Of a DNA stretch of 64,000 nt, positions 24,699 through 28,035 are shown in pieces. The notes beneath the pieces are model-generated. The model saw only the letters and a program-made list of their open reading frames with translations, ran no database searches and had not been told where the DNA came from. Positions within the stretch are counted from its first letter, which is position 1, and every line of letters begins with the position of its first letter. The translations under genes and the position numbers were made by a program. The DNA comes from Clostridiales bacterium (lineage in GTDB: Bacteria; Bacillota; Clostridia; Oscillospirales; Oscillospiraceae): positions 13,698 through 77,697 of the forward strand of contig JALFSI010000015.1 of the NCBI GenBank assembly GCA_022779365.1, given 5' to 3'.

Positions 24699-24727
24699 AT
24701 TGTACACCATTTTTCTCATTTTGGAAA
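24699..24727 (-). promoter_or_regulatory. putative promoter of the maltodextrin operon
   Basis: Minus strand reads TTTCCA - 17 nt - TACAAT, about 15 nt upstream of the palindrome. Confidence 0.4.
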
Positions 24728-24948
24728 TTAAAAAAATGCGGTTTTTTGATTTTCAGCGTTTCGTCCAATTTTAGATGCGCGTTTTTGTGCACATTTTCGG
24801 GTATTGCGCGGTTTCGTCACAACGTGCGGGCAGGGCTTTCTCCGTCCGCCATTCTTTTGGGGCAGCCGCGATCTCCAGAAGCCCCTCCCCTTCGTTACGA
24901 CGAAGAACGTCAAACGCCCAAGCGGGATGTCCGCTTGGGCGTTTCTCA

Positions 24949-25743
24949 TTATTTCGCGTAGATCAGTCCGACCAGCCAGTTGAGGGCGGGCTTGGGCAGC
25001 AGCTTTGCGAGCATACAGAAGAACTTATACTTTCCGCCGATGGTGTAGATGGGCTTTCTGCCCGTTTTCATCGCCACGCGGCGGATGAAGCGTCCGGCTG
25101 CCTCCGGCTGCATCCCTGTCTGTTCGTCGCGCTCCATACCGGCGACGCTGCGGCTGATGCGCCCGCCGTACACATCATCGCCCGCCTGCGTTTTCTGCCG
25201 CGCGGCGGTGAAGCCGGTCTTTATATCGCCGGGCTGCACGGCGCAGACCGTGATGCCGAACGGTCGCACCTCGTTTGCCAGCGCCATGGTGTAGGAATTG
25301 ATCGCCGCCTTGGAGGCGGAGTAATACGTCTGGAACGGGATGGGGATCGCCCCGGCAACGGAGCTGAGATTCACGATGCGCCCGCTCCCCTGCTTCCGCA
25401 GCACGGGCAGCACGGCGTGATTGACGCGCACCATGCCGAAAAAGTTCACGTCGAGCTGACGGATGGCATCCTTCGTGTCGGTAAACTCCACCGCGCCGGA
25501 GATGCCGAAGCCGGCGTTGTTGATGACGACATCGATGCCGCCCTCCTTCTGCACGACTTCGTCCACCGCGCGCTGCACCGCTTCTTCGTCGGTCACGTCG
25601 GTCGGGATGTGGTGCAGACCCTCAACGCCGGTCTCACGGCGGCTGAGCTCATAGACCGTATAGCCCGCGGCGCGCATTTCCAGCGCCGTGCAGCGCCCGA
25701 TGCCGGACGTGCCGCCTGTGATCAGGCAGACCGGGCGGCTCAC
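24949..25743 (-). CDS. classical short-chain dehydrogenase/reductase (SDR)
   Basis: TGGTSGIG cofactor motif, NNAG, and catalytic YSASKAA. The GTG start overlaps the TGA of the upstream gene (GTGA). Confidence 0.82.
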   Translation of the reverse strand: MSRPVCLITGGTSGIGRCTALEMRAAGYTVYELSRRETGVEGLHHIPTDVTDEEAVQRAVDEVVQKEGGIDVVINNAGFGISGAVEFTDTKDAIRQLDVNFFGMVRVNHAVLPVLRKQGSGRIVNLSSVAGAIPIPFQTYYSASKAAINSYTMALANEVRPFGITVCAVQPGDIKTGFTAARQKTQAGDDVYGGRISRSVAGMERDEQTGMQPEAAGRFIRRVAMKTGRKPIYTIGGKYKFFCMLAKLLPKPALNWLVGLIYAK

Positions 25744-26930
25744 AGCTCGTACCTCGCCAGCACATCCGCGATCACGCCGACGGCTTCGTCGATCAGCTCG
25801 TGCGTGTGGCTCGCCATCAGGCTCGTGCGAAGCAAACACTCATGCGGGGGCGCTGCGGGCGGCAGGGAGCTGTTGACATACACGCCGTTTTCGTAAAGCT
25901 CCTTGGCGATGGTGAGCGTGGGGATCTCCTCGTAGGTGTAGATGGGAATGATGGGGATGATGTCGCCGTTCGACGGGCGCATTTTGATGTTCTTTTCCGC
26001 GAGGCGGCGGCGCATATACAGCGCGTTTTCCTGTAATTTCGTCACCAGCTCCGGGTGCGCCTCGAGCTTGCGCAGCGCGGCGAGCGCGGCGGCGCAGTTT
26101 GCGGGCGGGATGGACGCGGAGAAGATGAACGGGCGGGAGGTATGGCGCACAAAATCCGTCACCTGCGCGCTTGCCGCCATGTAGCCGCCGAGCGACGCGA
26201 GTGACTTGGAGAACGTGCCCATGTAAATATCGACCTCGTCCTCCAGCCCGTAATAGCTCGCTGTGCCGCGCCCGCCGTCGCCGAGGACGCCGAGCCCGTG
26301 CGCATCGTCCACCATCACGCGCGCGCCGTACTGCTTGGCAAGGCGGCAAATTTCAGGCAGATTTGCGATGTCGCCGCCCATGGAGAACACGCCGTCGGTC
26401 ACGATCAGGCAGCCGCAGCCCTCCGGCACTTTTTGCAGCTTCTTTTCCAGGTCCGCCATATCGCTGTGGCGGAAGCGCAGCATCTGCCCGTAAGACAGGC
26501 GGCAGCCGTCGTAGAGGCTGGCGTGGTTCTCGCGGTCCATGATGACGTAGTCCTTCGGACCGACGATGGCGCTGATGATGCCGAGGTTCGACTGGAAGCC
26601 CGTGGAGAACGTCATCACGGCGTCCTTATGCAGAAACCTTGCCAGCTCCTCCTCCAGCTCCAGATGGAGCTTCAGCGTGCCGTTGAGAAAGCGCGAGCCG
26701 GAGCAGCCCGAGCCGAGCTCCATATATGCCTGCACGCCCGCCTCGATGACCTCCGGGTCGGTCGTGAGACCCAGATAGTTATTCGAGCCCAGCATGATGC
26801 GGCGCTTGCCCTCCATGATGACCTCGGTATCCTGCTTGGACTCGAGGGCGTGGAAATACGGATAGATGCCCAGCTCCTTGATCTGATCGGAGAGCTTGGG
26901 CTTGCTGCATTTTTCAAACAGGTCGATCAT
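25740..26930 (-). CDS. alpha-oxoamine synthase, serine palmitoyltransferase-like (PLP-dependent acyltransferase)
   Basis: Motifs MLGSNNYLGL, GSRFLNGT, NHASLYDG, DDAHGLG, PLP-lysine GTFSKSLASLGG, and YVNSSLPPAAP...LLRTSLMASHT. GAGGAGG RBS. Confidence 0.85.
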   Translation of the reverse strand: MIDLFEKCSKPKLSDQIKELGIYPYFHALESKQDTEVIMEGKRRIMLGSNNYLGLTTDPEVIEAGVQAYMELGSGCSGSRFLNGTLKLHLELEEELARFLHKDAVMTFSTGFQSNLGIISAIVGPKDYVIMDRENHASLYDGCRLSYGQMLRFRHSDMADLEKKLQKVPEGCGCLIVTDGVFSMGGDIANLPEICRLAKQYGARVMVDDAHGLGVLGDGGRGTASYYGLEDEVDIYMGTFSKSLASLGGYMAASAQVTDFVRHTSRPFIFSASIPPANCAAALAALRKLEAHPELVTKLQENALYMRRRLAEKNIKMRPSNGDIIPIIPIYTYEEIPTLTIAKELYENGVYVNSSLPPAAPPHECLLRTSLMASHTHELIDEAVGVIADVLARYEL

Positions 26931-27369
26931 TCGTTTGCTCCTCCTCTTCCATGTACCGCAGCAGCGAGTTGATCACACGCCCCGCCGCCGCGATCTCCTG
27001 TTCCGAATACTCCGTGCGCAGCGCGTCGATCGCCCGCCGGAGCGCCTGAGAGTCGCGCTGGAAATATCGGTCGTACTTCTCCCCCGTTTCCAGCCGGACC
27101 TCCCGCCGGTCACTTTCGGACACGCACTTGTGGACGTAGCCCTTCTGGACCAGACTGTTGACCTTGTAGGTCGCGTTTGGCTGTGAAATGCCGATGCACT
27201 CGGCAAATTGCGACAGCGTCGGCGCGCCGAGCAGATGGATCACATCCACCGAAAACGCCTCCGTTGCGCTCAGGCTGCCGCTTCGCTCGTGCACCGAGCC
27301 GAAAATGCGCCGGTAGCTGTCCAGCCGCAGCCAGCGGTACAGCCGCATGACCGTATCCTGAAATGCCAT
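26914..27369 (-). CDS. MarR-family transcriptional regulator
   Basis: Winged HTH (LSQFAECIGISQPNATYKVNSLVQKGYV...DRREVRL). GGAGGG lies 9 nt upstream of ATG 27369. Overlaps the spt-like start by 17 nt. Confidence 0.82.
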   Translation of the reverse strand: MAFQDTVMRLYRWLRLDSYRRIFGSVHERSGSLSATEAFSVDVIHLLGAPTLSQFAECIGISQPNATYKVNSLVQKGYVHKCVSESDRREVRLETGEKYDRYFQRDSQALRRAIDALRTEYSEQEIAAAGRVINSLLRYMEEEEQTNDRPV

Positions 27370-27429
27370 GTGGCGTTTCCCTCCATTCATTCAGAAATTT
27401 TATATAAAATTCTTTATGAACTTTTCACC

Positions 27430-27458
27430 AGTATAGTTCAGCGCTCCCGACTTGTCAA
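27430..27458 (-). promoter_or_regulatory. putative promoter of the MarR/spt-like/SDR operon
   Basis: Minus strand reads TTGACA - 17 nt - TATACT. An AT-rich imperfect inverted repeat (27393-27413) lies between the -10 and the RBS. Confidence 0.5.
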
Positions 27459-27522
27459 GAAAAATGTGCCGAACGCGAAAAAATGTGATATGATAGGGGC
27501 ACAACGAACTTGGAGGTTTATT

Positions 27523-28035
27523 ATGAAGGTCCTGGCGGTCATTGATATGCAGAATGATTTTATCTCCGGCGCGCTCGGCACGTTTGCCGCGCAGACGATC
27601 GTCCCGGTGGTGCGCCGCCGCATTGCCGAGGCGCGCGCGGCAGGCGACGCCGTTGTGTTTACGCTCGACACGCACACGAGCGCTTATCCGCAGACACAGG
27701 AGGGGCGCAAGCTCCCCGTGCCGCACTGCATCCGCGGGACGGACGGCTGGAAGCTGGAGAGCTCGCTGGACGCGACCGGCTGCCCGGTGTTTGAAAAGCC
27801 CGGCTTCGGCAGCCCGGCGCTCATCGAGTACCTCGAATCGCTGCCAGACCTGACGGAGGTGGAATTTGTCGGGCTGTGCACCGACATCTGTGTCATCACG
27901 AACGCGATGATGCTCAAGGGCGCGCTGCCCGAGGTCGCCATCAGCGTGCGGGCAAATGCCTGCGCGGGCGTCACGCCGGAGAGTCACGAAACAGCGCTCG
28001 CCGCCATGAAAATGTGCCAGATCGAGATCTTATGA
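27523..28035 (+). CDS. cysteine hydrolase (isochorismatase/nicotinamidase family)
   Basis: VIDMQNDF motif and catalytic Cys in GLCTDICV. GGAGG RBS. 170 aa. Confidence 0.84.
   Translation: MKVLAVIDMQNDFISGALGTFAAQTIVPVVRRRIAEARAAGDAVVFTLDTHTSAYPQTQEGRKLPVPHCIRGTDGWKLESSLDATGCPVFEKPGFGSPALIEYLESLPDLTEVEFVGLCTDICVITNAMMLKGALPEVAISVRANACAGVTPESHETALAAMKMCQIEIL

Follow-up and report, generated by a model that had tools for sequence, protein, structure and literature searches.

A candidate sphingoid long-chain-base operon under a MarR-family regulator in the gut genus CAG-170

We analysed a 64,000-nucleotide stretch (the window) of a Clostridiales genome (GenBank assembly GCA_022779365.1, contig JALFSI010000015.1, positions 13,698 to 77,697 of the forward strand), in which three overlapping minus-strand genes encode a MarR-family regulator, a pyridoxal 5′-phosphate (PLP)-dependent alpha-oxoamine synthase (AOS) and a classical short-chain dehydrogenase/reductase (SDR). 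With moderate confidence, we propose that these genes form an autoregulated operon through which a Gram-positive gut anaerobe converts serine and a scavenged long-chain fatty acid into a sphingoid long-chain base. An earlier reading made from the DNA letters and their translations (the sequence-only reading) had described the trio as a candidate long-chain-base module in a Firmicute, and the work reported here leaves it a well-supported candidate. The host is indeed a Firmicute, a species of the genus CAG-170 in the family Oscillospiraceae; its assembly has a size of 2.11 Mb and is 97.6% complete.

What was observed directly is how the genes are arranged, how they relate to known families, and that catalytic residues, gene linkage and operator are conserved. 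The substrates, product, cofactor and MarR repression, with its ligand, are inferred, as follows. AOS, with PLP on Lys242, would condense L-serine with a long-chain acyl thioester to give 3-ketosphinganine and CO2. The translationally coupled, KdsR-like SDR would then reduce the 3-keto group with NADPH, producing sphinganine (dihydrosphingosine) or a chain-length variant of it. The most likely source of the acyl chain would be fatty acids scavenged from host or diet and activated either to acyl-CoA or to a thioester of acyl carrier protein (acyl-ACP). MarR, bound to an AT-rich palindrome 3′ of the −10 box, would keep its own operon repressed until released by a lipid-type ligand.

The synthase resembles bacterial serine palmitoyltransferase

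In Pfam, AOS matched only the general class I/II aminotransferase fold. The NCBIfam models were more discriminating (Table 1), with the highest score obtained for the CFB-type serine palmitoyltransferase (Spt) model NF047600, on which the Bacteroides finegoldii Spt, our positive control, scored 700.5 bits. Against the protein chains in the PDB, the best match was the S. multivorum SPT (SmSPT; 411.7 bits), followed by the Sphingomonas SPTs (∼292 bits), Thermus BioF/Kbl (259 bits), Kbl (241–255 bits), the CFATs (218–233 bits) and Escherichia coli BioF (182 bits). AOS shares 48.5% of its residues with the Bacteroides Spt, compared with 34% for E. coli Kbl and 30% for BioF. The reference sequences came from annotated records and were checked with NCBIfam; they included B. 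finegoldii Spt and a Roseomonas ACP-linked Spt (626 bits, Beta-type model), with E. coli Kbl and BioF, Azospirillum BioF, Rhizobium HemA, Bacillus Kbl/BioF and a Kbl paralogue from CAG-170 as further references.

Table 1. Scores of the window AOS on NCBIfam models and the curated cut-offs of those models
Model	AOS score (bits)	Cut-off (bits)
CFB-type Spt NF047600	499.7	640
Beta-type Spt	404	500
Kbl NF005394	375.6	460
BioF TIGR00858	363.1	426
Alpha-type Spt	342	670
Kbl TIGR01822	304	493
HemA	245	338.55
CqsA	199	428

These scores bear on the possibility that the operon makes a diffusible alpha-hydroxyketone or amino-ketone signal, in the manner of CqsA or LqsA, with MarR belonging to the signalling circuit. 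Signals are indeed made by enzymes of the CqsA/LqsA type, and a dedicated regulator is present in the operon. However, the CqsA model gave 199 bits against 500 for Spt, there is no linked sensor kinase gene, and phylogeny (below) places AOS with the Spts. We rejected a CqsA-type enzyme on score and consider a signalling role of this kind very unlikely.

The active site was compared with that of SmSPT, where the residues around the PLP-serine aldimine are Asn52, Gly80, Ser81, Phe114, Asn117, His138, Ser185, Asp210, Ala212, His213, Thr241, Ser243, Lys244, Met271, Ser273 and Ala274 (PMC10196870). AOS, in which each residue has the SmSPT number minus 2, is identical at 15 of the 16; the exception is Met271, a main-chain contact, which is replaced by isoleucine. 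The PLP and catalytic set (H136, D208, H211, T239, S241, K242 and S183 in AOS) is identical throughout, a match that is necessary but not specific because the set is common to the whole AOS family. In addition, AOS shares with both the Bacteroides Spt and SmSPT the Spt-type residues Asn52 and Asn117 (SmSPT numbers), the GSRFLNGT loop, the S271-A272 pair (AOS numbers) and the N-x-x-L-P-P-A motif. Loop, pair and motif all differ in Kbl, BioF and HemA; the counterpart loop and pair are SVRFICGT and S-N in Kbl, GSGHVSGY and S-T in BioF, and GTRNISGT and T-T in HemA.

All six protein motifs that the sequence-only reading had quoted for the synthase were found in AOS. The Sphingomonas motifs that it had set beside them are nearly right: GSRMLNGT and YVNMARPPATPAGTFLLRCSICAEHT match PDB 2JG2/2JGT, and the one given as MLGTNNYLGM is really LLGTYNYMGM.

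The same pocket residues bear on a further alternative, namely that the pair makes the base of a sulfonolipid by condensing cysteate with an acyl thioester to 3-ketocapnine and reducing this to capnine, as CFAT/SulA and a reductase do in Bacteroidota. The two-step logic would be the same, and the CFATs belong to the Spt-related superfamily (PMC13692747). The pocket of the CFATs is, however, remodelled at Gly81-Ala82, in the Phe113-Gly114-Tyr115 region and at Lys280 (PMC13692747), and at these positions AOS has the Spt-type residues Gly78-Ser79, Phe112-Gln-Ser-Asn115 and Ala272. The solved CFATs also score below Kbl, at 218–233 bits compared to 412 for SPT. A CFAT was rejected on pocket residues and scores, making capnine a highly improbable product.

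Phylogenetic trees were constructed with FastTree (165 sequences) and with IQ-TREE under the LG+C20 model (65 sequences), neither set including CFATs. The Clostridial AOS sequences formed a single clade with a support of 99 in the FastTree analysis, and IQ-TREE agreed. This clade was sister to the clade containing the Bacteroides Spt, with a support of 86 under the IQ-TREE mixture model and 92 with FastTree. The enclosing group, which holds Clostridial AOS, Bacteroides Spt and Beta-type Spt, excluded Kbl, BioF and HemA (support 96–99). One Bacteroidota metagenome-assembled genome (MAG) was among the outgroup taxa of the Clostridial clade. Constraining the Clostridial AOS sequences to group with Kbl cost 95.7 log-likelihood units and was rejected by the approximately unbiased (AU) test (p-AU 0.00027).

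The sequence-only reading had named a position inside the Kbl or BioF clades as one outcome that would speak against it. AOS lies outside both clades and the grouping with Kbl is rejected, so that this objection falls away. HMM (hidden Markov model) scores and active-site residues put the synthase nearer to bacterial Spt than to any of Kbl, BioF, HemA, CqsA and CFAT, as does phylogeny for Kbl, BioF and HemA; this agrees with the view in the sequence-only reading that it resembles Spt more than BioF or Kbl.

Could AOS nevertheless be a housekeeping Kbl or BioF, with an SDR that is unrelated to it or threonine-dehydrogenase-like? The annotations would favour this, as the orthologues are recorded in JGI and older GenBank entries as ‘BioF/Kbl’ or ‘8-amino-7-oxononanoate synthase’. 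AOS is also the only AOS in its genome. On the other hand, it falls under both the Kbl and BioF cut-offs and scores lower on these models than on the Spt model, its substrate-loop motifs differ, and the AU test argues against the grouping. Moreover, searches of the 97.6%-complete genome using tblastn with E. coli queries (E 1e-4) found no BioA, BioB or BioD, and a search for Tdh gave a weak partial match only, with no clear Tdh. The organism is probably a biotin auxotroph. Some sister species of CAG-170 hold a separate, genuine Kbl (638–644 bits) alongside AOS. A role for AOS in biotin synthesis or threonine catabolism is therefore not supported; phylogeny, motifs and missing partner genes largely refute the Kbl/BioF assignment, which we consider extremely improbable.

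Two other AOS-related sequences were observed among plasmid records. An orphan AOS gene on conjugative Bacteroidales plasmids (L106:3911-5146; B. fragilis NZ_CP054001.1, also P. dorei NZ_CP072249.1) encodes a protein with 34% identity to the window AOS, for which CFB-type Spt is the best family (394 bits) and the loop is altered to AAQVIGGY. The record NZ_OY725929.1, ‘Bacteroides finegoldii plasmid 27’ (L099, PLSDB), carries aspS, lon, tgt, lptF/G and the true Bacteroides Spt gene (700 bits) beside a gene of the diacylglycerol kinase family, and is clearly a piece of chromosome entered as a plasmid.

The reductase is KdsR-like and is linked to the synthase across Clostridia

The best NCBIfam model for the SDR was KdsR (NF049977), at 251.4 bits, with PRK06179 next at 217 bits. 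The alignment to the KdsR model is nearly end to end (residues 3–260 of the protein against 3–265 of the 267 model positions). The protein has the motifs TGGTSGIG (9–16) and NNAG (75–78), Ser127/128, Tyr141-x3-Lys145 and, after beta-2, LSRR, the basic pair of which fits the use of NADPH. A hydrophobic C-terminal segment is kept among the orthologues. Within the genome, the window SDR alone matched the KdsR model strongly, all others scoring at most 102 bits. Ten SDRs from other Clostridia, each either linked with AOS or found in the same genome as AOS, all scored highest on the KdsR model (193–290 bits, with margins of 6–49 bits), despite identities to the window SDR of 33–51%. The suggestion in the sequence-only reading that the SDR acts as a 3-keto reductase is consistent with these matches. 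Two tblastn searches of a plasmid collection for the Bacteroides KdsR returned generic oxidoreductases only.

Within the genus, the trio of MarR, AOS and SDR genes was present in all of the 12 loci compared, always with the MarR gene 5′ of AOS. AOS was found in 22 of 24 same-genus genomes, a set that includes Firmicutes bacterium CAG:170 and the cultured isolate POC01, placed by its authors in Oscillospiraceae CAG-170 sp900549635 (PMC8772595). The two genomes lacking AOS (84% and 72% complete) are also without the SDR.

More widely, over 573 related loci came from a scan of one genome per species; the top 80 are all at least 69% identical and come almost entirely from uncultured gut or rumen Clostridia. 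An even draw across the class found an AOS orthologue (E 1e-125 or better) in 54 of 399 genomes (25 of 213 genera), and families tended to have it in nearly all of their members or in none. Cultured carriers are POC01 and Thermoclostridium stercorarium (AGC69315.1, annotated ‘BioF/Kbl’).

In 69 of 84 fetched loci, an SDR orthologue was present within the locus, nearly always directly 3′ of AOS. AOS, SDR and MarR were the only families that recurred in these 84 loci; no ACP, ligase, acyltransferase or kinase gene was a recurrent neighbour across them. In the more distant Clostridia the SDR gene still adjoins AOS, but may be 3′, 5′ or divergent. Adjacency kept in varying orientation speaks for selection on the pairing itself, rather than for a gene order passed down by descent. 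In two genomes where no SDR gene adjoins AOS, an orthologue (49% identity) lies elsewhere.

A variant arrangement was seen in a genome of another family in the same order (G040), where an operon (L016:5746-8309) encodes MarR, a fatty-acid-binding protein of the DegV/FakB type (PF02645, 169.8 bits) and AOS, followed by an EamA transporter. The module is thereby tied again to fatty-acid uptake. The KdsR-like SDR of this genome is unlinked to AOS (G040:C20:71303-72082). Separately, MAGs labelled Bacteroidaceae, Sutterella and Coriobacteriaceae (L067, L046 and L044) contain an AOS of the Clostridial type with 71–76% identity; L067 and L046 also carry the SDR, and the ‘Bacteroidaceae’ genome, 1.8 Mb in size, lacks an Spt that passes the cut-off. 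Either the labels of these MAGs or their binning looks wrong.

Operon architecture and a conserved promoter-proximal palindrome

The features of the operon are collected in Table 2. The sequence-only reading had described a TTGACA-17-TATACT promoter, which is present on the minus strand and is the only sigma-70-type site found by a consensus scan of positions 24700–27700; shuffled sequence gave a mean of 0.7 sites. The two gene overlaps that it had described are likewise present, with the MarR stop and AOS start overlapping by 17 nt (26914–26930) and the AOS stop and SDR start overlapping as GTGA (25743–25740).

Table 2. Features of the operon within the window
Feature	Position	Strand	Remarks
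GC-rich hairpin, 14–15-pair stem	24912–24944	minus	directly 3′ of the SDR stop codon
Classical SDR gene, 264 aa, GTG start, KdsR-like	24949–25743	minus	profile match and motifs
AOS gene (PLP-dependent), 396 aa, Spt-like	25740–26930	minus	PLP lysine K242
MarR-family gene, 151 aa	26914–27369	minus	likely start ATG 27369, 9 nt past GGAGGG; open reading frame open from 27390
Putative MarR operator, perfect 16-bp palindrome AATTTTATATAAAATT	27396–27411		between the −10 box and the ribosome-binding site; read in sequence
Sigma-70-type promoter	−35 TTGACA 27458–27453; 17-nt spacer; −10 TATACT 27435–27430	minus	consensus scan, 11/12 matches

The hairpin that follows the SDR gene was scored by a terminator scan for the plus strand only, the minus strand being unscored because its tail is T-poor. 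It is likely to mark the end of the operon transcript, with a putative terminator role on the operon strand.

The MarR protein is a member of the MarR family (PF01047, 36.2 bits; cut-off 24.6). Its sole NCBIfam match was to FabT (NF050133), at 38.7 bits where a cut-off of 200 defines membership, and its best match in the PDB was S. pneumoniae FabT (6JBX; 37.1 bits, E 3e-8). MarR thus appears weakly FabT-like, with FabT as its nearest named relative.

An AT-rich inverted repeat reported in the sequence-only reading was confirmed, its core being the perfect palindrome listed in Table 2. A check on the string itself showed this palindrome to be exact. In most of the loci that bear MarR, palindromes of the same type (AAAATTTTATATAAAATTTT, AATTTTAATTAAAATT and ATAAAATATTTTAT) lie at the equal position while the flanks diverge. 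The TTGACA…TATACT arrangement is also found 5′ of the MarR gene in nearly all same-genus loci, and the layout of a promoter followed by an AT-rich palindrome is shared by these and by several loci from other genera. The position of the palindrome, just 3′ of the −10 box, fits that of a repressor operator, and MarR is probably an autorepressor of the operon. The genus-wide conservation of this promoter-proximal palindrome lends support to the MarR switch that had been suggested.

The sequence AATTTTATATAAAATT (27411–27396) is the sole perfect copy in the 2.1-Mb genome, and hence MarR is probably dedicated to its own operon. A genome-wide palindrome search supported no wider regulon, giving the MarR gene's own perfect site and one other site only. 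The latter is a second operator-type palindrome, TATTTTATATAAAATA, which has two mismatches and lies between two divergent small genes (G000:C12:49328-49343).

None of the genes that flank the operon has to do with lipids; they comprise a maltodextrin ABC operon, a cysteine-hydrolase-like gene, an adenosine deaminase gene and a nucleoside ABC system. The sequence-only reading had remarked that no ACP, acyl-CoA ligase or ceramide synthase gene lies alongside. At the locus this held for ACP, ligase and acyltransferase genes, none of which adjoins the operon.

The acyl chain is likely to be scavenged

A source of acyl chains was sought in the rest of the genome. FabF was not found by HMM or tblastn searches of the 97.6%-complete assembly, nor were FabH and FabD by tblastn. 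Across the genus, FabF was not found in 28 of 31 CAG-170 genomes, including all 11 of the high-quality ones, among them POC01. The genome does encode PlsX, ACP, five DegV/FakB proteins and one FadD-like long-chain acyl-CoA ligase. The sole clear ACP gene (G000:C44:21092-21301; L129:1492-1710) encodes 72 aa with a GIDSLD motif, scores 55.5 bits (under the cut-off) and stands alone beside rpoD, outside any fab or pls cluster. By its gene content, CAG-170 looks like a fatty-acid scavenger or auxotroph without type II fatty acid synthesis (FASII). Given this apparent absence of FASII and the presence of FakB/DegV, PlsX and the FadD-like ligase, the acyl chain used by AOS is likely to be scavenged. 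Fatty-acid auxotrophy may also bear on the poor culturability of CAG-170.

Arguments against a sphingoid product and use of other substrates

Several points weigh against the formation of a sphingoid base. By the curated equivalog rule AOS is not an Spt (499.7 bits, where NF047600 requires 640), and by its own rule the SDR is not a KdsR (251.4 bits against 400). As both enzymes are under the curated cut-offs, our proposal is one of function, namely that the pair works like Spt plus KdsR, with membership of these families unproven. The KdsR score of the SDR leads those of generic SDR subfamilies by ∼34 bits, and its likeness to KdsR is drawn from profile scores and linkage. Replicons of Ralstonia, Rhizobium, Pantoea and lactic acid bacteria, which are not known for sphingolipids, also carry SDRs of ∼40% identity. 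The evidence for the identity of the SDR is weaker than that for AOS. The resemblance of MarR to FabT (37–39 bits) is weak. No ceramide synthase, head-group enzyme or exporter was linked to the pair in the 84 loci, and free sphingoid bases are membrane-active, so that either a further step would be needed or the product would be a different one. The length of the acyl chain is not readable from sequence, and acyl-CoA and acyl-ACP donors are not distinguishable by it. Full-text searches of the literature gave no paper on an Spt/KdsR pair in Clostridia and no lipid analysis with clostridial sphingoid bases. Finally, Spt-family enzymes can accept glycine or alanine.

The most serious alternative is that the same two-step chemistry acts on other substrates (glycine, alanine, threonine or another; short or medium acyl chains) to give a non-canonical amino alcohol, for example a 1-deoxy-sphinganine-like lipid or a small signal. 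AOS misses the Spt equivalog cut-off by 140 bits and stands in a separate clade from the characterised Spts. SmSPT itself turns over glycine and alanine, albeit poorly (PMC10196870), and the lack of a linked ceramide-forming enzyme would also be in keeping with such a product. Set against this, all the SmSPT residues that place the carboxylate and hydroxyl of serine are kept in AOS, and the nearest characterised relatives all use serine with C14–C18 acyl donors. The hydrophobic, conserved C-terminus of the SDR would also fit a lipid substrate. We therefore regard other substrates as rather unlikely, and retain serine and a long-chain acyl thioester as the preferred substrates of the operon.

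Implications for gut sphingolipids

Sphingolipids made by Bacteroides pass into host tissues and influence both immunity and lipid metabolism. Their production in the gut is generally attributed to Bacteroidota and some Proteobacteria. A preprint on community lipidomics describes labelled sphingolipids that it could not account for, because Spt annotations were confined to B. thetaiotaomicron and E. coli (10.1101/2025.09.11.675017); the Clostridial genes carry annotations as generic aminotransferases or BioF. CAG-170 was identified in a 2025 preprint, a meta-analysis of 11,115 metagenomes, as the strongest uncultured health marker and a candidate keystone genus; lipids are not mentioned there.

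If our proposal is true, ∼1 in 7 of the sampled Clostridia genomes, CAG-170 included, could make sphingoid bases. It would also raise the question of what role a sphingoid lipid has in a single-membrane cell that is unable to make its own fatty acids. As a wider and more speculative extension, which we put forward tentatively and think unlikely to hold, many gut and rumen Clostridia might build sphingoid bases, or undescribed Gram-positive sphingolipids, out of host or dietary fatty acids, the switch in CAG-170 being a FabT-like MarR that senses fatty acids or acyl carriers. On that extension, Bacteroidota would not be the sole gut source of sphingolipid-type signals, and part of the association of CAG-170 with health could run through these lipids. 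The new elements here are the setting in CAG-170, the conservation of the MarR operator, the apparent lack of FASII and the naming of cultured carriers. The proposal is open to experiment, as there are two cultured carriers (POC01 and T. stercorarium) and a published E. coli co-expression assay for the Bacteroides enzymes.

Comparison with known systems

The regulator may be compared with FabT of the streptococci (6JBX, NF050133), with which it shares the MarR fold, an AT-rich palindromic target overlapping the promoter (putative for the window MarR) and a context of lipid metabolism. FabT, however, sits over fab genes, which are seemingly absent from CAG-170, whereas the window MarR (37–39 bits) sits over an operon that is Spt/KdsR-like.

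The ceramide pathway of Caulobacter (ACP, ACP-synthetase, Spt, bCerS and CerR) likewise combines an Spt-family condensation with a reductase. In the alphaproteobacterial pathway, acylation precedes reduction, a dedicated ACP gene lies beside spt (as seen at the Roseomonas locus L100) and ceramide synthase is clustered with them; none of these is linked in the window. The Beta-type and Alpha-type Spt models also score lower for the window AOS (404 and 342 bits) than the CFB-type model.

The closest likeness is to the Spt of Bacteroidota (B. thetaiotaomicron BT_0870 and S. multivorum SPT, PDB 3A2B/8GUH), a soluble AOS of ∼395 aa and homodimer type to which the window AOS is 48–50% identical. Conservation extends to the PLP lysine, the His/Asp/His triad, the residues that bind serine and the GSRFLNGT loop, and the two form sister clades. 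Unlike these enzymes, the window AOS scores under the cut-off and belongs to a Gram-positive host without an outer membrane. The gene contexts also differ. In Bacteroides, spt and kdsR are unlinked, whereas AOS in the window is translationally coupled to its reductase under MarR; a lipid kinase gene adjoins spt at the Bacteroides locus L099, whereas none adjoins AOS here.

The Bacteroides KdsR (BT_0972, PMC9278070) is a classical SDR of ∼265 aa, and the window SDR shares its catalytic Ser, Tyr and Lys. Unlike KdsR, the window SDR scores 251 bits against a cut-off of 400 and has similar SDRs in non-producers; the role proposed for it rests mainly on its conserved linkage to an Spt-like enzyme. 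For the Bacteroides pair, BT_0870 and BT_0972, the co-expression assay in E. coli worked (PMC9278070).

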